Positions 8,435 to 60,505 of a stretch of DNA of 64,000 nucleotides are shown piece after piece; the stretch's first letter is position 1; every line of letters starts with the position of its first letter. The translations under genes and the position numbers were made by a program. The stretch covers positions 112,530,001 through 112,594,000 of the forward strand of contig OX597818.1 in assembly GCA_951406725.2 (NCBI GenBank), in the 5' to 3' direction. This DNA is from Octopus vulgaris. Lineage: Eukaryota. Under the pieces are notes generated by a model, which was not told the DNA's origin, made no database searches, and saw only the letters and a program-made list of their open reading frames with translations.

Positions 8435-8490
<56 letters not shown>

Positions 8491-8770
8491 CAACAATTGA
8501 GGGTAAAATTAATTAATTAATCAATTTCACCAAGTATTCAGTATACAAAGGGACCATTTAAGGCGAATTCAAATTATTACATTATATAAAAGGGCTTAGT
8601 AAAATAAATTACTTTGCCGCATACTGAACTCATTAGAAATAGCAGCTAAAAAAACTTTTTTAAAACTATCTCCAATACTTAAAGAAAATCTCTCTCGTAT
8701 AGTGTTTGCTCAATTCAACTCACGAAAGTATGAGGGTAGAGACATTAAAAAATCAAATGCAAAGGTTATT

Positions 8771-8822
8771 TGAGAACGTACGTTTCAAGATTAGTCAAAT
8801 CAACACTTCTATCATCAGCTCA
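8771..8822 (-). ncRNA. Type I hammerhead ribozyme-like motif
   Basis: Reverse complement reads TGAG-CTGATGA-(25 nt stem/loop II)-GAA-ACGTACGT-T-CTCA. Confidence 0.65.
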
Positions 8823-9328
8823 GAACTCCCTGGTTTGGATTTGAAAACACTGAAAGCGGGAGCATACCTTTTCGGCTTGTTATCGCTTCTGAAGATCTGT
8901 TCAAAACTCACAGTGTTAGCAAATTCAAATATGCAAACGAAGAATTTCTGCTCTCCCCTTCCACCAGCGTGGGTTAAAATCAGCAAACATTATGCTTTTT
9001 TTTCCGTAAAATCCGAGGCATTATATAGAGAAAGATGAATTATAATTTCAACAATTGAGGGTAAAATTAATTAATTAATCAATTTCACCAAGTATTCAGT
9101 ATACAAAGGGACCATTTAAGGCGAATTCAAATTATTACATTATATAAAAGGTCTTAGTAAAATAAATTACTTTGCCGCATACTGAACTCATTAGAAATAG
9201 CAGCTAAAAAAACTTTTTTAAAACTATCTCCAATACTTAAAGAAAATCTCTCTCGTATAGTGTTTGCTCAATTCAACTCACGAAAGTATGAGGGTAGAGA
9301 CATTAAAAAATCAAATGCAAAGGTTATT

Positions 9329-9380
9329 TGAGAACGTACGTTTCAAGATTAGTCAAATCAACACTTCTATCATCAGCTCA
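9329..9380 (-). ncRNA. Type I hammerhead ribozyme-like motif (second unit)
   Basis: Identical to 8771-8822, 558 bp away. Confidence 0.65.
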
Positions 9381-10072
9381 GAACTCCCTGGTTTGGATTT
9401 GAAAACACTGAAAGCGGGAGCATACCTTTTCGGCTTGTTATCGCTTCTGAAGATCTGTTCAAAACTCACAGTGTTAGCAAATTCAAATATGCAAACGAAG
9501 AATTTCTGCTCTCCCCCTTCCACCAGCGTGGGTTAAAATCAGCAAACATTATGCTTTTTTTTCGGTAATAACCTTTGCATTTGATTTTTTAATGTCTCTA
9601 CCCTCATACTTTCGTGAGTTGAATTGAGCAAACACTATACGAGAGAGATTTTCTTTAAGTATTGGAGATAGTTTTAAAAAGTTTTTTTAGCTGCTATTTC
9701 TAATGAGTTCAGTATGCGGCAAAGTAATTTATTTTACTAAGCCCTTTTATATAATGTAATAATTTGAATTCGCCTTAAATGGTCCCTTTGTATACTGAAT
9801 ACTTGGTGAAATTGATTAATTAATTAATTTTACCCTCAATTGTTGAAATTATAATTCATCTTTCTCTATATAATGCCTCGGATTTTACGGAAAAAAAAGC
9901 ATAATGTTTGCTGATTTTAACCCACGCTGGTGGAAGGGGGAGAGCAGAAATTCTTCGTTTGCATATTTGAATTTGCTAACACTGTGAGTTTTGAACAGAT
10001 CTTCAGAAGCGATAACAAGCCGAAAAGGTATGCTCCCGCTTTCAGTGTTTTCAAATCCAAACCAGGGAGTTC

Positions 10073-10124
10073 TGAGCTGATGATAGAAGTGTTGATTTGA
10101 CTAATCTTGAAACGTACGTTCTCA
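10073..10124 (+). ncRNA. Type I hammerhead ribozyme-like motif (inverted arm)
   Basis: Stem I TGAG/CTCA; CTGATGA at 10077-10083; GAAA at 10109-10112; palindromic stem III ACGTACGT; predicted GUU cleavage after 10120. Confidence 0.65.
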
Positions 10125-10320
10125 AATAACCTTTGCATTTGATTTTTTAATGTCTCTACCCTCATACTTCCGTGAGTTGAATTGAGCAAACACTATACGA
10201 GAGAGATTTTCTTTAAGTATTGGAGATAGTTTTAAAAAAGTTTTTTTAGCTGCTATTTCTAATGAGTTCAGTATGCGGCAAAGTAATTTATTTTACTAAG
10301 CCCTTTTATATAATGTAATA

Positions 10321-10365
<45 letters not shown>

Positions 10366-10448: not shown

Positions 10449-11340
10449 GTATGTGTGTATGTGCATGTGTGTGAGAGAGAGAGGGGGAGAGAGAGAGAGC
10501 GTGTGGATGCACGTGCACGCGTGTGTGTAGAGTAGAAATTTCTTAAGTAGAAACTAGATTACGAATATAAATTTAATTTTTTTAAATTCAAAGACATAAA
10601 TGAAATATTCTTATATTTATATGCGAGACAGAATTTTCTGAGAAACTGTTGAATATATTCCCAAACAATATAAAGTCTTTTGATGCAGTCGGTATGTATT
10701 ACGCTACTTTATAAGGCTGACTGAAATTTTCTCTGGTTTTATATGCATGAAAATGATAATAACGAATATTTAATGGACGTTAGCTATTGAAATTTTTGAA
10801 TGTTTGTAGAACCTGAATGAATGTATAAGATATTCATTATTTAGACTTTCATTAGATGATTCAAAATATTTTAACTAAGATATTCATTCATGAAGATAAA
10901 ATAAGTGTTACGAAGTTGGTTTTATGATGAAAGTTCTGCGAATTTTTTTTTCACTGAGTGACAAGTATCCCCAACGTCTCTCTTCTCTTTAATGGGTTTC
11001 GCTTCTTGGATTAAATTTCAAATAAGTCTATAATTCTGATGATTATTTTCATTTCAACATCCATATTTCCTTTCATAATTTTGTGCCTACATGCTAGCTC
11101 AGATTTCTAAAATATGGCTGCCGTTTTTTTAAATTAATATAATGTGATATTTGCGGAGAATTGTCGCAAAGTTATTTACTGGTTGTATTTCAACTTCATT
11201 TTACAACGTTATGACAGATAAACGAGATACATTATTCCTAGGCTGAATTCTGTATCTGTGGGGAAAATAAATTTAGTAGAAAATAGATAAAAAATGTATG
11301 TGTACCGATGCAGGTTGTTTGAAAGAAACAAACTAGTCTC

Positions 11341-11536
11341 TTTTACTCTTTTACTCTTTTATTTGTTTCAGGCTGTGGCCATGCTGGAGCACCGCCTTTA
11401 GTCGAGCAAATCGACCTCAGGACTTATTCTTTGTAAGTCTTGTACTTATTCTAAGTTACGGGGACGTAAACACACCAGCATCAGTTGTCAAGCGATGTTG
11501 CGTGGACAAACACAGACACAAACATACACACATACA

Positions 11537-11611
<75 letters not shown>

Positions 11612-11793
11612 TTATATATATATACATATACGACCGGCTTCTTTAAGTTTCCGTCTACCAAACCCACTTACAAGGCTTTGGTCGGCCCGAGGTTAAAGTA
11701 GAAGACACTTGCCGAAGGTGCCACGCAGTGGGACTGAACCCAGAACTATGTGGTTGGTAAGCAAGCTACTTACCACATAACCACTCCTGCGCT
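11341..11793 (-). mobile_element. tRNA-derived SINE, family B, with internal microsatellite
   Basis: Reverse complement matches the full-length copy at 59562-59978. Confidence 0.85.
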
Positions 11794-12966
11794 TATGCAA
11801 ATTAAATCACGAACGCTAATTTGTTTGAAAACCATGTAGTATTCTTTCCGTTCTATGGAGACAAAGTGGCAGATCTCATTATTGCTCCGTAGGAAGTACT
11901 TAGTGACATTTTGTCCGTTTTAACGTTCTGAGATTACATTCCTCTGAGGACGCCTTTGCCTTTCCTCCTTTCTGGGTCGGTAAAAGAAGTACCAGTAATG
12001 TACTAGGACCGATGCGGTAGTCTTAACCCTTCCCTGGAAATATCCTGTCTTGTGCCAAACGTTCAAACCAATATTATTTATATTCTTTTACTCTCTTACA
12101 TGCTTCAGTCATTTGACTGCGGCCATACTGTAGCACCAACTTTAGTCGAACGAATCGAACCTCGAGGCTTATTCTTTGTAAGTTTATTACTTATTCTATT
12201 GGTCTCTTTTGCTGTACGCACGTCTACTCATGCACCAATTATTCCCATAAACATACATAATATTAAATTATATTTAACATGATAAAGCAGTCAATTTTAC
12301 CAACAATAATATAATATATAAACTCAGTTCAATCACTCGAATGTGCAGGTAAATATTTACCAGCGATGTAAACAATTATTTTATTTCTATTTTCCTAGGG
12401 TACAAATGGAAAACGATATTCCATCGATAACTGCAAATTAGTTGAAATTTAATGAATAAATCTATCTTGAACTTTTCTAAAGATTTCAAAGTTGCATAAG
12501 TGGTTTGATAATTACAGAGTTTCAATGATTGTTTATCAATTAATGTTCACATACTTACGTACACACTCACATGCATGCTTACACGCAGACACATACACAT
12601 ACAAGAATATATATCTAATGAACAAGCAAATATATTTAAGCATATAAAAGTATATATTTAATATATTTAAATATATATTTAAGCATATGTATAAATGTAT
12701 ATTTATATATGTCAAAGTGTATACAAGCTTACATACATACATTTGTGTGTATGTGTGTGTATGTGTGTGCATTATCTACAGCTCGAATGAAATTTAGAAG
12801 GATTTATGAGTGACTACGTGATAAGTAGCTTGCTTACCAACCACGTTGTTTTGGTTTCAGTCTCACTGAGTGGCACCTTCGGCAAATGTCTTCTACTATA
12901 GCCTTGGGCCGACCAAATCCTTGTGAGTCGATTGGGTAGAGGGCAACGGAAAGAAACCCGTCGTAA

Positions 12967-12997
<31 letters not shown>

Positions 12998-13249
12998 GCG
13001 CCGCCTGGCCGTAAATAATTGTTGGTTATATGAAAAACCACTGAAAAATTATTTACCATTTTTATTGTATTACCATGTGGACTTCTTATTCCATTGCGAT
13101 CGGCCAGGCGGCGCACACGGCAGAATTTTTGGAGGGAAAATTTACGTTCTCAGTCATTACTTAGTTTTAGCATATGCACACCTCCCCCCACTATCTGATG
13201 TCGCTTGGTCAGAAGTGAGGGCCTGTGGCATTTGCCAAATCTATCGAAT

Positions 13250-13311
13250 ATGGTGTTGATAAAGGAAATCAAGCTATTTTCGTGCTTGTGATCTAGAAAC
13301 ATGTTCATCAT
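13250..13311 (+). ncRNA. Hammerhead-like motif with U3:A8 core
   Basis: ATGGTG-TTGATAA-(stem II incl. CAAGC/GCTTG)-GAA-ACATGT-T-CATCAT; 6-bp stem I with one G-U pair. Confidence 0.6.
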
Positions 13312-13798
13312 TAACGGTAAGAGATTGGTTTCGTTTATTTGCTACTCCGTTTTTTGCGTATGTGAATCGCAGGGTTCGTCGTATTTGGAAAATCCACTTA
13401 TAGAAAATGGAAAAAACAGTCTTTGACTGCCATTTCTAATTCCTCCGGTATGCGGCGAGGCAGCCTGCTGCCCGCCCTTTAATTATTTTCACTATATACT
13501 GAACTTTCCAGAAGTTCCTGACGATGAATTTGTCATATTTACATACCGGAATTTTACCGGTAAATAATTGTTGGTTATATGAAAAACCACTGAAAAATTA
13601 TTTACCATTTTTATTGTATTACCATGTGGACTTCTTATTCCATTGCGATCGGCCAGGCGGCGCACACGGCAGAATTTTTGGAGGGAATATTTACGTTCTC
13701 AGTCATTACTTAGTTTTAGCATATGCACACCTCCCCCCACTATCTGATGTCGCTTGGTCAGAAGTGAGGGCCTGTGGCATTTGCTAAATCTATCGAAT

Positions 13799-13860
13799 AT
13801 GGTGTTGATAAAGGAAATCAAGCTATTTTCGTGCTTGTGATCTAGAAACATGTTCATCAT
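13799..13860 (+). ncRNA. Hammerhead-like motif with U3:A8 core (second unit)
   Basis: Identical to 13250-13311. Confidence 0.6.
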
Positions 13861-14163
13861 TAACGGTAAGAGATTGGTTTCGTTTATTTGCTACTCCGTT
13901 TTTTGCGTATGTGAATCGCAGGGTTCGTCGTATTTGGAAAATCCACTTATAGAAAATGGAAAAAACAGTCTTTGACTGCCATTTCTAATTCCTCCGGTAT
14001 GCGGCGAGGCAGCCTGCTGCCCGCCCTTTAATTATTTTCACTATATACTGAACTTTCCAGAAGTTCCTGACGATGAATTTGTCATATTTACATACCGGAA
14101 TTTTACCGGTAAATAATTGTTGGTTATATGAAAAACCACTGAAAAATTATTTACCATTTTTAT

Positions 14164-14194
<31 letters not shown>

Positions 14195-14916
14195 ATGTAT
14201 GTATATGTATGTATATTTGTGTATTTTTTTGTGTGTGTGTTTGTCCCCCCGAACATCGCTTGACAATCGACGCTGGTGACATTACGTCCCGTAACGTAGC
14301 GGTTTAGCAAAGTGGCCGATAAAATAAGTACTCAGCTTACAAAGAATAAGTTCTGGGGTCTATTTGATAGACTAAAGGTGGTGCTCCAGCATGGCTGCAG
14401 TCAAATGACTGAAACTTGAAACCAGTAAAAGATTAAAAGAATAAAATTACTTTGCTTTTGTTTCTTATTATTTTATTACTTCATTTTCGAAAAAAGATTC
14501 AAGAAATATTTGTTATCGAAGCAAGATCTTGAACTTCCTGAAAGCATCGAAAGTTTGACTATAGTAGTGATTCAACTGACATATTTGATATATTTCCGAC
14601 AGAAATATTGCTTTTGCTCCCATTGGTCATATTAGAGACGAGCTCGGAAAAGTAAAATTGATAAGATAAAAGATATAAAATTGCTTGAGTCTCACCGAAA
14701 AACGGTTAAAGAAACATGTGCTTGTTTAGTGATGTGCCTAAAGAGATCTTTACTTCAGTATTGTTCCTCGCAACCCCAGAAGGTTTTCATTTATATGAAT
14801 TAATGATATGTTTATATCCATATCACACTACACAGACATACGACGAAAGTCTCTTCAAAGCAAGAGAAGGGCTGCATTACTGCATTTACATGTCGCCTTT
14901 AAAGTCATACCGTTGA

Positions 14917-15905: not shown

Positions 15906-16349
15906 ATATGAATGCCTCTACGTGTACATATATGTATAAGTGGATATATGCAATGCAGTCAGTAAAAAGCTTAAAGATCAAAGCCATACATAAAATTTAC
16001 TCAATTACTAGAAACTGCAGAATTATTATTATTTATTTTCTTTCAGTAATACCAGACGTTGAATTAAGAGATTTTTGTCTCAATTTTTTATAGATAGTCA
16101 TGTCTGAAAAACCAAAAACAAAAAATACAATTCTAAGTAAACAAACAGTATAATCACCAACACACCCATACGTATGCATATAAATTAGTATGCATATGGG
16201 AGAGCATGGTTCGCTGTATCTAAATTGAGGAATATTTTTTTTAAATGGCCAACAATGAACGATCAGCGTGATTCATAAAAAAACTATTAGGCACCTTGTA
16301 TTCTTTTAGAAATACGATTATGTTAACATCTTTCTCCCCCGTCTTAAAA

Positions 16350-17205
16350 CATTATTCATTATAAAACATAATTCATTTAGGTACGTATTAACATCACCTC
16401 TTTCGAAATAGTCACTTTGCGCTGGAATACACTGGTCCCAGCGTTTCTGCCAGTTTTGGCACCCGGCCTGCAAGTCATTTTCCGTAAGCGAGTCGAGGAC
16501 CTTCTGCGATTCGGTCCGGATCTCGACAACGGTGTTAAAACGACGTCGTTTGAGCTGCATTTTCATATCGGAGAAATGCTGGAAGTCCGCAATTGCTAAA
16601 TCTGGCGAATACGGCGAGTGCGAGGGCGAGACCCTCATGTTTTGGAGAACTCGGTCACAGGGTACAATGCGTCTGTGAAGAATCAAATTTTTCCGCTCCA
16701 TGTACCCGGTCGCTTTCGCAATATGTCCTTCCACAAACCTTTCAAAATGTCGAGTTAGAACTCTTGGTTGACGGTCTGGGACTGAGTGGGAGGTATGTGG
16801 GTAGGGGTTGATGCAGAAATCACATTTCTGAGCGTAACACTCGTGGTAGGTCTTCGGAATCGCTCATCGTCTTCGAAGGAGGTTATTCTGCTTTTGAAGT
16901 GCCGGTGTCACTTGCAACTTTCTATACGACCCATTAATTCATCCCCGAAGCTTGCCGAAGCATGTTCAATGCCACTGTAGCAGTCTTGCCAAGTTTAATG
17001 CAAAACACCACATTGATTCTTTGTTCCTGTCAGTAACAGCAGGCAGCACACATAGATCTTCATAACTTGTAAAGTTTTCACAGCGATGTCACTTCGCACA
17101 CTGCTTTACGAAAGTTACTGCTAGGCCTCACTACCCACGTGACTGTGTGCTGCCTTTGTTGGCGCGCTACAGTACTAGTTCGAAGACCTTTTAATATCTC
17201 CTCTT
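16350..17205 (-). mobile_element. Internally deleted, frameshifted mariner transposon
   Basis: ORF 16318-16734 has HSPYSPDLAIADF...LKRRRF...WQKRWDQCI..QSDYFE (mariner YSPDLAP motif and C-terminus). An N-terminal remnant (EQRINV..KLGKTA...FEDDER) lies at about 16840-17030, and a TIR-like end lies near 17175-17205. Confidence 0.85.
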
Positions 17206-24811: not shown

Positions 24812-26285
24812 TTTCAGCTCAGAGCTGCGGCCATGCTGATGCACCGCCGTTTTGTGCTACACTTTTGTTACGACGAACCTCGTCTAATATGTGCCACTTG
24901 GGGAAGAATGGAGTTTGATACAGCTACTCTCATTTGCACCTCTTGCCGTGAGGTAGGTTCATCTGGGACTCTTGACAGGAAGAGGTCCAGCTTTGATTTA
25001 AAAACCGCTACATCTACTTTGTGCAAGTTCCTCAGACTCTTTGGAAGAATATTAAAAAGCTGTGGGCCCTTGAAACCCAGGCTGTTGCAGAAGCTGGTCC
25101 TGAAGCGTGATGGCATTGCTGGGATCTTTGGCACTACGCAGTGTCGTCCCGTTCTAGCATTGGTGTAGCTTACAATGCCAAAATTTGGCACAAATCCTTC
25201 CAGGATCTTCCAGACATATATCACTGCATACCTCTCCCGTCTTCTCTCCAGGGAGTAGAGTCTTAGCTGTTTCAACCTTTCCCAGTAGCTGAGCTGTTGT
25301 AAAGAGACGATCTTCTTTGTGAATCTTCTCTTGGATTGCTTCAAGGTCCGCTGTTAATTTTACACTGGTGGGTGACCATAGCTGTGAGCAGTAATCCAGG
25401 CGACTGAGGACGAATGTCCGCCAGAGGACCATCATGGTTTCCTTATCTCTGGTTCTGAATGTTCTTAGGAACCACCTAGCCAGTCGTCTGCACTTTGTCG
25501 CAATCCTGGTAATGTGCACTTGGAAAGAGGTATCATCACTCATGTCAATACCCAGGTCCCTCACAAACTTAGGCTCTGGGATTGAAATTCCCTGTGGACC
25601 GGTGTATCCTGTAAGTTTAATATTCCGTTTTGGATGCTGGTTGCGCAAGGCCGGGAATTTTTCAGCATTAAACTGCATATTATTATCCTCAGCCCATCTG
25701 TAGATTGAGTCCAACTCCTGCTGCAGGTGTGCAACATCGCTGGAGTTCTGTATTTTCTGCGAGACTTTCGTATCGTCTGCATAGCTGGCCAGAGTGGCTA
25801 TCCGGGCATTTGAGGGCATATCTGAGAGGGCCACTATAAAAAGCAGTGGTCCCAAGACAGTGCCCTGTGGAACACCGCTCACTATTTGTGTGTTCTTAGA
25901 GGTGGCTCCATTAACCACTACTGCCTGACTCCTATCTTTCAGGAAGTCATGCAACCACACTCCAAGTTTTCCTGCTATGCTGAGGTCACGTAGTTTGTGG
26001 CATATCATACCATGATCCACCTTGTCAAAAGCTTTTGCAAAATCAAGGTAGATTACGTCCACATTTGATTTGTTGAGTAACTGCCTCAACACCCAATCAT
26101 AATATTGTAAGAGCTGGGTGAAACAGCTCCTACCTGGTCGAAAACCATGCTGGGTATTACTCAGCAAGTTATTTTCCTCAAGGAATGCGATTAGTTTCTT
26201 TCTGACTATCCGTTCCATGACTTTGCTGATGTGTGAAGTCAGAGAGATAGGCCTATAGTTTTTGGCATCTGCTCTACTTCCCCCA
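24812..26285 (-). mobile_element. 5'-truncated CR1-group LINE (reverse transcriptase domain, frameshifted)
   Basis: Motifs QHGFRPGRSC, YLDFAKAFDKVDH, SGVPQGTVLGPLLF, YADDTK and SYWERLKQL.LYSLERRRER; 3' end GGCGGTGC..CAGCATGGCCGCAG..CTGAAAC plus an A-rich tail. Confidence 0.95.
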
Positions 26286-26444
26286 TTTGATTACAGTTTA
26301 CAATTAATGTACACAAAATGCGATATTTTAATTCGATGAATCGAGTGGAGGATACACACCTGTGTGTGTGAGCATCGTCAAACTAAAACACCTGGTTGTT
26401 GTTTATACACCTGTCTCCGTCTTTTGTTTTTCTATAAGTTTCAT

Positions 26445-26570: not shown

Positions 26571-27128
26571 TGCGAGGATTAGTCAAAGAGTAATGTCATT
26601 TTGTTTAGGACAGGTATAATTACCAACACAGGAACATGTATTATACATCAAAACGAAGCTGGTCCTCTGTGGATCACATCCCTAATTCTCAACATAGTTA
26701 CAGTTTCTCTCAATAGCAATGTTCCACTTTCGAATGAGAGCATGTATCCCCTGCCCCGTAAAATTCTGTTGACTGTTCTTTGAGACACTTCTTCCGTACA
26801 GATTTCAATTCCTCGTCACTGGAATGTTTGCCTCTCAAACCCTCTTTCGTGTCGCCGAAGTGATGATAGTCCGAAGGCGCTAAATCGGGTGAGTGTGGAA
26901 GTACTGAAGAAGTGGCTCAAAGAACAGTCAACAGACTTTTACGGGGCAGGGATACATGCTCTCATTTGAAGTTGGAACATTGCTATTGAGAGAAACAGTG
27001 ACTAGATTGAGAAGTAGAGATGTGATTCACAGAGGACCAGCTTCATTTTGATGTAGGATACATGTTCCTGTGCTGGTAATTATATCTATCCAAAACAAAA
27101 TGGCATTACTTTTTGACTCACCCTCGCA
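26571..27128. mobile_element. Palindromic mariner-derived MITE made of two inverted 3' ends
   Basis: About 230-bp inverted arms ending in CGAGG.T.AGTCAAA.AGTAATG.CATT. The minus strand of the left part encodes PHSPDLAPSDYHHFG..KEGLRGK. Confidence 0.85.
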
Positions 27129-29651: not shown

Positions 29652-30410
29652 ATGAAGGTCATGGTGGAATAAATTGCAATGCTTCCTTTCATAAAACTCA
29701 TCTACGAGACTTTTAAATATTCATCGACAAAAAATCGGTGAGTTTTAACAGAGTCGATAAAGCACCGTAAACAGCACCTAGCATTATTATTTTTACTCTC
29801 TGCACGATATTGCCCTTCATTCTTTCGGGTCCGAGGAAAATGTCTCTATGGAATGCAGTGGTTAGTTAGAACCATGAGATTGCTGCAGTTTGCTCAGTTA
29901 GTTTACGCTCAAATTTCCAATGTTCCGTTGATGAACAACATAATCACACTCCCTAGCACACTAATGTAAACATATGGAACTAGTCATCAGTTTAAGGAAA
30001 CCTTCCTTCTTCCCAAATACCTGCCTTCGAGACCCTGAATACAGGTATTTTGGAAGAAGGAAGGTTTCCATAAACTGATGACTAGTTCCATATGTTTACA
30101 TTAGTGTGCTAGGGAGTGTGATTATGTTGTTCATCAACGGAACATTGGAAATTTGAGCGTAAACTAACTGAGCAAACTGCAGCAATCTCATGGTTCCTAA
30201 CCACTGCATTCCATAGAGACATTTTCCTCGGACCCGAAAGAATGAAGGGCAATATCGTGCAGAGAGTAAGAATAATAATGCTAGGTGCTGTTTACGGTGC
30301 TTTATCGACTCTGTTAAAACTCACCGATTTTTTGTCGATGAATATTTAAAAGTCTCGTAGATGAGTTTTAGGAAAGGAAGCATTGCAATTTATTCCACCA
30401 TGACCTTCAT
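29652..30410. repeat. Near-perfect palindrome with ~370-bp arms and an 18-bp spacer
   Basis: 29652-30023 is the reverse complement of 30042-30410, apart from about four substitutions and one 3-bp indel. Confidence 0.95.
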
Positions 30411-43538: not shown

Positions 43539-43608
43539 CTGAAATAATTTAAGAAAAATAATGTATATAATTTGAGATGCTCGTTATGCCTTGGCGTTTG
43601 TTGTCCTC

Positions 43609-43664
<56 letters not shown>

Positions 43665-43666
<2 letters not shown>

Positions 43667-44313
43667 CAAGAATAAGAGAGACGGAGACACTGATGGTCCT
43701 ATGGAAAATATTCGTCCTCAGCCGCTTGGACTACTGCTCCCAAATATGGTCACCACACAATATAAAACTAACAGCAGAACTCGAAGCAATTCAGAGAAGC
43801 TACACAAAGAAAATCGTCTCAATGCAAAATATCAGCTACTGGGAAAGACTGAAGGTATTAAACCTCTTCTCCCTAAAGCGGAGGCGGGAGAGATATGCAG
43901 TGATATACATCTGGAAAATCCTGGAGGGTCTTGTCCCAAACATTGGCATTCAAAGTTACCCCAACCACAGAACAGGGCGCCAATGCATGGTGCCAAAGAT
44001 CCCAACATCACCATCAAAATACAGGTCCAGATACTGCAACAGCTTGGGTTTCAGAGGACCACAGCTCTTTAACATCCTCCCTAAATGCCTGAGAGACTTA
44101 CATGCTGTGGATGTGGGTTTCTTTAAAACTAAACTGGATCTCTTCTTGTCGGGAGTCCCAGATGAACCTACCTCACGACAGGAGACGCAGATGCGGGCAG
44201 CAGCGTCGAATTCCCTTGTTGATCAAGTGCCACGTATCAGAGGTGGATTCACATATTAGTGTAGCTCATTCAGCGGTGGTGCCCCAGCATGGCCGCGGCC
44301 TCCGGGCTAAAAC
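43665..44313 (+). mobile_element. 5'-truncated CR1-group LINE, 3' end
   Basis: FVLSRLDYCSQIWSP...SYWERLKVLNLFSLKRRRERY...FKTKLDLFLSGVPDEP; clearly homologous to 24812-26285. Confidence 0.92.
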
Positions 44314-48829: not shown

Positions 48830-48905
<76 letters not shown>

Positions 48906-48929
48906 AACAATGTCTGTGTGTATTATTTT

Positions 48930-49297
48930 CTTCTTTTATTTGTTTCAGTCATTTGACTGCGGCCATGCTAGAGCGCCGCCTTTAGTTGAGCAAATCGATC
49001 GCAGGACTTATTCTTTGTAAGCCTAATACCTATTCTATTGGTCTCTTTTCCCGAACCGCTAAACACACCAACATCGGTTATTAATAGATGTTGAGCGGAA
49101 AATCATACACACACACACACACATACATATTTATACAACGGGCTTCTTTCGGTTTCCGTCTACCAAATACAACCACAAGGCTTTGGCTGGCCTGAACCTA
49201 TAGTGGAAGATACTTGCCCAAGGTGCTACACAGATGGACTGAAAGAGAAGCATGTGGTTGTGAAGCAGGCCACCTACCACACTGCCACTCCTGCGCC
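48930..49297 (-). mobile_element. SINE family B
   Basis: Reverse complement matches 59562-59978. Confidence 0.85.
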
Positions 49298-49326
49298 TAT
49301 GATGTATATATTTATATATATATCTT

Positions 49327-57485: not shown

Positions 57486-57504
57486 AAACAAGTAAAAATA
57501 GAAA

Positions 57505-57541
57505 ATGCCGGTTTCGGTCATTTTGAGACCTTTTCAACTGT
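57505..57541 (-). ncRNA. Hammerhead-like motif with U3:A8 core in the PLE 3' region (3' part decayed)
   Basis: Reverse complement reads ACAG-TTGAAAA-GGTC(TCAAAAT)GACC-GAA-ACCGG-CA. Confidence 0.6.
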
Positions 57542-57889
57542 AACGATTAAATAATTAAATTTAGAAAAATTAAAAGAAAAGTTTTTTTAAAGGAATATTT
57601 GTATAGTGTTCAAATATAAGTGGCATTCTGCCTTTCTCTGTCTCCCTTGTTTGCACTTGTGTGTTCGAGGTCGTTGTGAATTCTTGGTAGGGTAGAAGAA
57701 GAAGGTTGATGAGGAGAGGGGTGGAAAAATTTGGGAGTGCCTTGATTGTCGTATTTTGAATGGTCAGTGGCGGCTAGCAGTTGCAGTTCAATTCAGGAGA
57801 ATATTTCTATTGAATGGTTTGTTTATGGAATTTGCGTAGGTGTTATACTAAAAAGCATTAGTGATAAAGTTAAGAGGTAGAAGGTGGAG

Positions 57890-58090: not shown

Positions 58091-59561
58091 GAGAAGGGAG
58101 AATATGAATGAGTGGAAGTAGTGAGGTGTTGTATGACTTGAAGTTGGCACGTTATGGATTATAGCTGTGATTGTGGCTGATTTGTAATGGATTCTTTGGA
58201 ATGTAATATTTGCGTGTGTATTTCTGTTATTCTAAAGCCGAGGTGTATTAATCTTTTGTCGTAAACCCGTTAAGAAGTGGCCTGTATTTTGTAATAAAGA
58301 GAGTTTCTTTACTTATTCGTTGTCTCGAAGTTGTATCGTCCCTACATTGGTAGAGGGGGGGGGAATCCTGAAGCCTGGTGTTTTGTTGTTGGCGCAAGTA
58401 TCTATGTGTTGGCTGAAAGCTATTTTTCTGTTTTGGGGAGTTTTTATCTGGGACTATTTTTTGTTTGGCCTATGTACTGCTCTTGATACCCAGAGCAGGT
58501 TAGTGTGTATATCAGGTTCTCCGAAGCACATGTGAAGTTGCTTTTCACTGTAAACCGTTGTCCCTGTTTGAAGGAGAACTCTGATCCCTCAATTAGATAA
58601 TCGCATATCCCGCAATTGGGTCTTCCACATTTTTTTACTGTCGGCTTCTGTGTTGAAGAGTGTATTCGGGCTTGTGTTAGGAGACTTTTCATAGATTTAG
58701 GCTGTCTCTTGCTTTTTATAATCGTCTGTGTTTAGAGGATTGTGTTCATTCTGTGGTCTTTTTTTAGGAGGGGTATGTTGTGGAGGATGGTGCCGAAGGC
58801 TTCCTTATTGAGAGGGTTGTGTGTGGAGATGTATGGTAAGGCTTTTGATCGTAAGTTTTTCTTTGATTTGGGATGTCTCAGTTCCTTGATGTTGAATGCA
58901 CATGTCAATAAGTGAAGGTGGGTAGTTCCTGGTGATAAGGGTATCTTTTAGTTCTTGTAGTCGTGTGTCTCTGGTGTTTGCATTAGAAACTATAGTGCAT
59001 ATCCTTTTTGCTAGATTGAAGGGGATATTCATCCTCGTGTGTCTGGGGTGGCATGAATTAAATGGAAGATAGTGCTTAGATCTGTAGGCTTATAATATAT
59101 ATCTGTTTCTATTACATTATTAGCTTTCTTAAGGAGGATATCGAGGAAGGGGAGTTGTTGCTGTCTATATTCCATCGTGAATTGGATGTTTACGTCCAGT
59201 CCGTTTAAAATTTCTTGGAATTCTTTGAGTTTCTCTATATTTTCATGCCAAAGAATGAAACAGTCATCTAGATATCTCTTCCAGTTGTTTTCTATATATA
59301 TATATATATATATGCTTCCTATGCGAACGTCTATGCAGTTTGTGTTGTACAAGTGAACTAGTGTTTTCATGTGTAACCAACTACCGTCACCGCCACCTAA
59401 TTGTATTTATTGCTTTGTTTCATTTTCTTGATTCTTTTCATTTTCTACCTTCTTGTTTTTTCCGCATATGAGATTTTATTACTCATTTATCTATATTAAG
59501 TATCAAATATCCCCACTTTTGTGCCCGCTCTGCTCACATACCTTAATGACATTATAATATA

Positions 59562-59978
59562 GGCGCAGGAGTGGCTGTGTGGTAAGTAGCTTGCTTACCA
59601 ACCACATGGTTCCGGGTTCAGTCCCACTGCGTGGCACCTTGGGCAAGTGTCATCTGCTATAGTCCCGGGCCGACCAAAGCCTTGTGAGTGGATTTGGTAG
59701 ACGGAAACTGAAAGAAGCCCGTCGTATATATGTATATATATATGTGTGTGCATGTAAATTGTGTGTCTGTGTTTGTCCCCCTAGCATTGCTTGGCAACCG
59801 ATGCTGGTGTGTTTATGTCCCCGTCACCTAGCGGTTCGGCAAAACAGACCGATAGAATAAGTACTGGGCTTACAATGAATAAGTCCTGGGGTCGAGTTGC
59901 TCGATTAAAGGCGGTGCTCCAGCATAGCCGCAGTCAAAATGACTGAAACAAGTAAAAGAGTAAAAGAGTAAAGAGTAA
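59562..59978 (+). mobile_element. SINE family B, full length
   Basis: tRNA-like head (TGGCTGTGTGG, GGTTCAGTCCC), CORE-like CCTTGGGCAAGTG, internal microsatellite, CR1-like 3' end and (AGTAAAAG)n tail. Confidence 0.9.
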
Positions 59979-60505
59979 ATATATTGTCGGGGAAAGCAAA
60001 AATTTGTGTATGCAGATAACGAGATGAAACTCGCTTAGGTAACAGTAACTCAGGTATAATTTTGGCCCAATATCGATTCTATTTTCCATTATCGTATTTT
60101 GATCCTTCTATTAGCCAAGACATATTTTTGCCCACTTTTTTTAGTGCAGAATACTTTTTAAACCAAACTGTGGTATACACCTGATGAGAAAAGCATTCCC
60201 AGCGTCTACAAGGCTTTTGGAATATTACGTAGAATGCTTCAGATGTGCTTTTGAGAGAGTTGTAGTACTCGATTACGTCTTCCAACCATTTTATCTACTG
60301 CTTTCATATAAAAATGGCGTTTTAGAGCACATGCCATCGAAATTTCCTATCTAATCTCTATACAGGATGAAATGTATCGCTGCATTGATTAATAGATGTT
60401 GTTTGTCAAGTATCGAGTCATCTCCAATTTTTAAGCAAGCCGTGCGTTTATGATAGTGACTAACGATCTGTATTTTACCATGATGTCTCGACTGATCCTC
60501 CCATA

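Follow-up and report, generated by a model that had tools for sequence, protein, structure and literature searches.

Penelope-like elements leave insertions of a characteristic form, described by Craig 2021 (PMC8557442) as partial tandems with a 5'-truncated copy in inverted orientation, a tail on one side and a bias towards (TA)n. Their proteins are reported to cut both strands of AT-rich DNA and to begin reverse transcription at internal RNA sites (Frangieh 2024, PMC11167929). In PAc, the only in vitro Penelope-like system, hammerhead mutants still inserted, and the motif needed protein to cleave. Animal retrozymes are described as transcribed and self-cleaving, as dimers where stem III is short, with circularisation by RtcB in vitro (PMC7229834). 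Minimal hammerheads are reported to be weak in vitro (PMC4209133), and eight of nine Xenopus dimers went without cleavage in a recent preprint (10.64898/2026.07.22.740005).

The core variant of interest here, U3-A8 for C3-G8, also has a history. Perreault 2011 described natural covariation from C3-G8 to U3-A8 and cited earlier in vitro activity (PMC3088659), and Cervera & de la Pena 2014 gave U3-A8 its own descriptor, with ~1,300 hits, in the minimal hammerheads of Schistosoma Penelope-like elements (PMC4209133). The earlier note on this DNA had inferred a functional variant ribozyme that CUGANGA-based searches would miss; the U3:A8 core is no novelty, being a published natural variant since 2011 and 2014. 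For hammerheads with U3-G8, no paper was found in our literature search. A 2017 paper by Lunse in RNA Biology is said to treat small Penelope-associated hammerheads and may describe these same variants.

The whole stretch of DNA analysed here (64,000 nucleotides, the window) has the look of animal DNA rich in microsatellites, and it contains decayed pieces of LINEs and other transposons. Within it we found a locus that is, in our judgement and with good confidence, a non-autonomous Penelope-like tandem in (TA)n, each unit carrying a predicted U3:A8 hammerhead, of which weak cleavage in the dimer would be expected. The features of the locus and of other sites in the window are as follows.

12968..12990, left (TA)n run, the target microsatellite inside a dispersed host repeat (from flank alignments)
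12991..13011, minus strand, inverted head of 21-22 bp, the reverse complement of 13101-13122
13011..13559, plus strand, unit 1, 549 bp (from periodicity)
13250..13311, plus strand, predicted minimal type I hammerhead 1 (from descriptor search, folding and family variation)
13314..13342, plus strand, predicted blocking strand, which would pair with core G5-A9 and the 5' arm of stem II in the monomeric circle
13411..13456, plus strand, 46-nt shared box, 106-151 nt 3' of the predicted cut (copy 2 at 13960-14005)
13560..14108, plus strand, unit 2, 549 bp
13799..13860, plus strand, predicted hammerhead 2, identical to hammerhead 1, predicted cut after 13854, partner in the dimer fold (from descriptor search and folding)
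14109..14164, plus strand, partial third unit of 56 bp, the probable start end of reverse transcription
14165..14186, (AT)n run on the right, which passes into the mixed microsatellite of the host repeat (from the sequence)
8485-10324, tandem/inverted element of 558 bp, flanked by (TA)n runs and carrying three C3-G8 hammerheads
~58230-59310, minus strand, decayed Penelope-like element, 5'-truncated and frameshifted, beginning right after a (TA)n run
59559-59979, 48900-49310 and 11330-11800, uninterrupted paralogues of the host repeat (from alignment within the window)

The stretch from 12991 to 14164 comprises 2.1 copies of the 549-bp unit, with (TA)n runs on both sides. At period 549, 603 of 605 positions were identical, while the neighbouring periods 547, 548, 550 and 551 gave 171-199 matches; the two units differ only at 13139/13688 and 13236/13785. 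The inverted head (12990/12991-13011) matches 13101-13122 as a reverse complement at 22/22 positions (E 1.6e-5), and head and forward arm overlap by 1 nt. These results bear out the architecture that had been claimed for the locus, namely a (TA)n target, a tandem of more than two units and an inverted piece at the 5' end. Alignment of the flanks further showed that 12808-12983 on the left and 14193-14446 on the right match adjoining parts of the uninterrupted paralogues. Given that the outer flanks are two halves of one repeat that is unbroken at three sites in the window, the element was inserted into the microsatellite of this repeat. The host repeat itself is ~400 bp long, abundant and dispersed, and has an internal TA/TG microsatellite, as seen at the three sites listed above and at others. 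No protein-like ORF was found in the element, where overlapping stop-to-stop frames reach at most 111 aa, and the RT plus GIY-YIG ORF that marks an autonomous Penelope-like element is absent from it. The 549-bp tandem is a young, non-coding insertion in a TA microsatellite.

A partial tandem, an inverted 5' copy and a microsatellite target are all present, and since tandem units, an inverted head and a TA target are the textbook marks of Penelope-like insertion, we take the locus as likely to be a non-autonomous Penelope-type element (non-LTR retrozyme). The decayed Penelope-like element at ~58230-59310 (-) carries RYLDD, a CX4CX2C linker and GIY-YIG-like motifs, and together with leads from an atlas these motifs are a pointer to elements of Neptune type in the genome. 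The Neptune-like pieces had no significant match in Pfam, and no sequence shared by the 549-bp unit and the Neptune-like piece of the window was detected.

Within each full unit lies the hammerhead motif, and the TTGATAA core that had been claimed for both units was recovered at 13250-13311 and 13799-13860. In hammerhead 1, stem I is formed by 13250-55/13306-11 (6 bp), the core places U3 at 13256, A8 at 13261 and A9 at 13262, stem II is an interrupted 8-bp helix (13264-74/13284-94), and GAAA (13296-99) is followed by the palindromic stem III ACATGT, with the predicted cut after U17 = 13305. Both units carry Y3-U4-G5-A6-N7-R8-A9, G12-A13-A14-A15.1 and U16.1-H17 together with a 3-8 pair, and each full unit has a palindromic stem III that would allow a dimer. 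The G10.1-C11.1 closing pair is lacking: A13263 faces A13295 (A-A), and the base of stem II after this mismatch is G-U in the window and G-C in diverged copies.

A descriptor of the motif (Y3/R8 core, stem II of at least 3 bp, palindromic stem III, stem I of at least 4, 5 or 6 bp), which was written post hoc with the motif already seen, was matched at the three stringencies by 0, 2 and 2 dinucleotide-shuffled versions of the unit (3000 each, both strands), 4/9000 in total. In the window it gave six matches, two here, three in the 558-bp element and one weak. Rfam gave no hit in the window at its gathering threshold and 14 hits at E<=10, none of them a hammerhead; the weak snoRNA and miRNA hits among these were judged to be chance hairpin or microsatellite matches. 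Since the canonical-core motif of the 558-bp element was missed as well, the Rfam models do not cover this minimal form. Exact scans for the hammerhead motif returned nothing from viral contigs, with the window's own form included, and nothing from metagenome contigs, where the pattern carried the diverged-subfamily letter and was unable to match the window form; as these collections are mostly non-animal, the blanks carry little weight.

U17 is a poorer cleavage site than C17. The importance of the 10.1/11.1 pair is stressed in the literature, where a mismatch (U-U) is also known from natural hammerheads (PMC3088659; PMC7229834). The G-U closing pair is suboptimal too. With a GUU site and an A-A at the base of stem II, low activity is plausible, and the modelled hammerhead would cleave weakly, as a dimer.

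The folding predictions were examined for the dimer and for the circle. For the dimer, a swapped double hammerhead was predicted at -186.9 kcal/mol versus -181.3 for two monomer folds (5.6 lower), which lies 3.5 kcal/mol above the unconstrained MFE (-190.4), and the stem III duplex ACATGT was predicted at -7.8 kcal/mol. For the hammerhead motif by itself, the predicted fold was on a par with those of shuffles (z 0.08). The predicted fold of the 549-nt circle had a z of -6.5 (0/40 shuffles) and that of the minus-strand circle a z of -4.4; because the minus-strand circle folds well too, this test says little on strand. In the predicted monomeric circle the core would be masked by 13325-13339, with blocking-strand pair probabilities of 0.87-0.97 for most pairs, and forcing the hammerhead would cost only 3.2 kcal/mol. 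The family-majority base at 13328 (G>T) weakens the predicted blocking strand.

To describe the variation of the family, we used a run search that listed 24 sequencing runs. Part of the unit was present in 20 of them, which come from 10 studies under three organism labels plus one marine metagenome. The runs X1, X10, X12 and X4 were compared (175, 145, 94 and 29 contigs at 80% identity or more; 443 contigs under 3 organism labels), and the family results draw on 40 of the 78 variant rows, 24 of the 81 loose ends and 32 of the 451 pieces. The depths given are summed contig means and not copy numbers, with a bias toward query-like contigs. RNA is on record for one of the 24 listed runs (X20, word share 0.05, outside the compared runs); for X4 RNA is a guess and DNA is possible as well, and the data compared are contigs.

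Both T/C at 13256 and A/G at 13261 were present in 4/4 runs. The depth of C at position 3 (13256) was 290/3840 in X1, 1761/3164 in X10, 100/245 in X12 and 14.3/23.7 in X4, and that of G at position 8 (13261) was, in the same order, 668/4590, 2840/3164, 130/182 and 14.3/23.7. The U3-A8 form dominates X1, and an amplified U3:A8 form occurs in 4/4 runs, which marks it as a subfamily state rather than private decay. The earlier note had read U3:A8 as compensatory, and the pair behaves in this way, as an amplified subfamily beside C3-G8 copies with both stems still pairing; private decay from CTGATGA at positions 3 and 8, named there as telling against it, is not what the four runs show. Because G8 depth lies above C3 depth in X10, X1 and X12, a U3-G8 class is required in these three runs, with a smaller excess in X1 and X12 than in X10. 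In X4, the equal C3 and G8 values and a zero-difference contig (9.44) together account for the whole depth, and only C3-G8 and U3-A8 are needed. With phasing incomplete, the order of core changes was likely C3-G8 > U3-G8 > U3-A8, so that U3:A8 would be a subfamily variant reached from C3-G8 via U3-G8. The large U3-G8 class suggests relaxed constraint.

This class also lends weight to the rival that survives best, a Penelope-type parasite whose hammerhead is nearly vestigial, with linear uncleaved multimers as template and U3:A8 fixed by drift through a tolerated U3-G8, not by selection on cleavage. In X10, a depth of 1080 or more out of 3164 belongs to U3 with G8; PAc mutants are reported to insert, with unprocessed RNA as the main substrate (PMC11167929), and minimal hammerheads are described as low in activity (PMC4209133; 10.64898/2026.07.22.740005). 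The family contigs speak for a maintained motif, however. C3 depth was never above G8 depth in any of the four runs, as expected if C3-A8 is purged, and no variant at another core base was found among the 40 of 78 variant rows listed. The pairing of stems I and II is kept across variants, while loop II tolerates indels: at 13308 stem I changes from G-U to G-C in 4/4 runs, and among the loose ends listed for X10 and X12, stem II reads CAAAC/GTTTG for CAAGC/GCTTG in the window, a double change from G-C to A-U deduced from two of them; the loose ends also have G-C at the base of stem II and keep the extra A before GAAA. We consider this rival unlikely, though it deserves to be kept in mind.

The same contigs bear on the origin of the tandem. 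The head-to-tail junction 13559>13011 was found in 4/4 runs with depth up to 476, and the family is thus a dispersed, multi-copy, non-coding tandem with a hammerhead motif in each unit, as in non-LTR retrozymes. A shorter 461-nt head-to-tail junction variant (13471>13011) was seen in one X4 contig with a depth of 22. If the unit were not free-standing but the truncated end (pseudo-LTR) of an autonomous Penelope-like element, with local duplication making the tandem, this would agree with the preprint's derivation of retrozymes from pLTRs (10.64898/2026.07.22.740005) and with the reported dominance of truncated copies in Penelope-like families (PMC4209133). The recurrent junction stands against such an origin, as do the lack of a protein-like ORF in the unit and the fact that none of the 24 of 81 loose ends listed was recognised as entering an ORF, and we regard it as improbable. 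A satellite or DNA-level element (Helitron-like or from unequal crossover) with a chance hammerhead look-alike, in whose favour the unit junction sits in a palindrome with hairpins close by, is hardly credible given the rarity of the motif in shuffles (4/9000), the covariation at 3/8 and in the stems, and a 558-bp neighbour whose canonical C3-G8 hammerhead lies equally far from the shared box.

This box is what links the two elements. The segment 13411-13456 (+) is identical to 8661-8616 (-) at 34 of 46 positions (74%; 0/200 shuffles, and 53/200 in the antisense control), and in the 558-bp element it lies ~115-160 nt behind the predicted cut, the same place as here. The two units had been called unrelated; this holds outside the box and the hammerhead, where no similarity was detectable (z 0.69, 75/300 shuffles), and fails for the shared 46-nt box. 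Colinear homology of the whole units is not asserted, as the global score (0/300 shuffles) lost its signal without box and hammerhead. The highest depth in 4/4 runs was at 13410-13447, the box region, and among the loose ends listed one X10 contig runs from the box straight into (TA)n, which together suggest that more families share the box and that some copies end there. We infer from this that the box is a candidate cis signal for the Penelope-like protein. Exact scans for the box motif in metagenome contigs and prokaryote genome contigs, collections that are mostly non-animal, gave nothing. The hammerheads of the 558-bp element lie at 8818 -, 9376 - and 10077 +, with U-U at 10.1/11.1 and a palindromic ACGTACGT as stem III, and its two ends differ by ~86 nt.

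Taking the locus as a Penelope-type retrozyme with a working dimeric hammerhead, we propose the following life cycle. Read-through transcription would cross the tandem, and neighbouring hammerheads would pair through their palindromic stem III (ACAUGU), each then cutting behind its GUU (13305, 13854). The 549-nt monomer so released could be closed into a circle by a host RtcB-type ligase. Binding of the RNA, perhaps at the shared box, would fall to an autonomous Penelope-like protein, probably one of Neptune type, which would also nick (TA)n and start reverse transcription at an internal RNA site. Priming at 14164 would yield 2.1 units, and a second priming on the other strand, at the equivalent of 13122, the inverted arm of 21-22 nt. 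The G at 13170 is common to both units and absent from all depth in X1, X10 and X4, so one template gave rise to both units, which fits the copying of a circle or multimer beyond one unit length. The run contigs have a depth peak at 13049-13067, the equivalent of the end of the partial third unit, and a hairpin (14108-14155) lies just 5' of that end, with a z of -1.8 that 9/200 shuffles reached.

Other features were observed in the window. At 57495-57545 (-) a core of the U3:A8 type occurs together with a stem II of 4 bp, GAAA and a palindrome, but U16.1 and stem I are missing; it lies ~30 nt before a (TA)n run and may be the decayed hammerhead from another end of Penelope type. Two long fold-back stretches, 29652-30410 and 26571-27128, have arms 97% and 81% identical, and no hammerhead core or box was found in them. 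Decayed LINE-type RT pieces occur at 24868-26290 (-) (RVT_1, E 1e-31) and 43576-44259 (+) (no RVT_1 hit). A frame at 16318-16863 (-), without a Pfam hit, resembles the end of a mariner-type transposase in its motifs.

The value of the locus is as test material, in that a very young insertion offers two intact predicted hammerheads and clear ends. As the 3-8 pair occurs in three states within the family, measured cleavage could be compared with copy success. The box, common to neighbours that are otherwise unalignable, is a concrete candidate for how retrozymes recruit Penelope-like proteins. Rfam misses both the 549-bp and the 558-bp element, and screens with CUGANGA only would miss the former. 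More tentatively, several divergent retrozyme families of this lineage may have a common short box outside the ribozyme, 105-160 nt past the cut, that serves to hijack a Neptune-type RT, and the present family may preserve a live compensatory C3-G8 > U3-G8 > U3-A8 path, with C3-A8 purged, across related species; we hold this to be possible and rather less likely than not to prove right.

In comparison with known systems, the element resembles the animal non-LTR retrozymes of Cervera & de la Pena 2020 (PMC7229834) in having non-coding units that are arranged head to tail and each contain a type I hammerhead, in a GC content below 50% and in a strongly self-paired predicted circle. With two complete predicted hammerheads it agrees with the criterion of the preprint of Li, Clavereau & Pollet 2026 (10.64898/2026.07.22.740005), and its unit falls within the 51-972 bp range given there, whereas the retrozymes described in PMC7229834 are shorter (150-450 bp). 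In contrast to the canonical retrozyme hammerhead, the form here is the minimal Penelope type with U3:A8; the predicted circle would block the hammerhead, which most metazoan circles are described as leaving free (PMC7229834). The U-U at 10.1/11.1 in the 558-bp element is as in axolotl HHR_Amex2 (PMC7229834). Like the U3-A8 variant of Schistosoma Cercyon (PMC4209133), the 549-bp motif has an extra base after A9, a long stem II and a palindromic stem III implying a dimer; it differs in the additional unpaired A before G12 (A-A at 10.1/11.1), the GUU site, the non-coding tandem that carries it and the occurrence of C3-G8, U3-G8 and U3-A8 classes in one family. As in Neptune/Naiad-type insertions (PMC8557442, PMC11167929), there is a partial tandem with an inverted 5'-truncated copy in a (TA)n target, without a discernible TSD and with two ends at different internal sites. 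Unlike those, this insertion has no RT or GIY-YIG ORF, and its two ends are offset by ~56 nt, compared with a reported tail of 30-40 bp. The locus is no new kind of system, yet its series of 3-8 pairs within one family and its shared box are worth testing.
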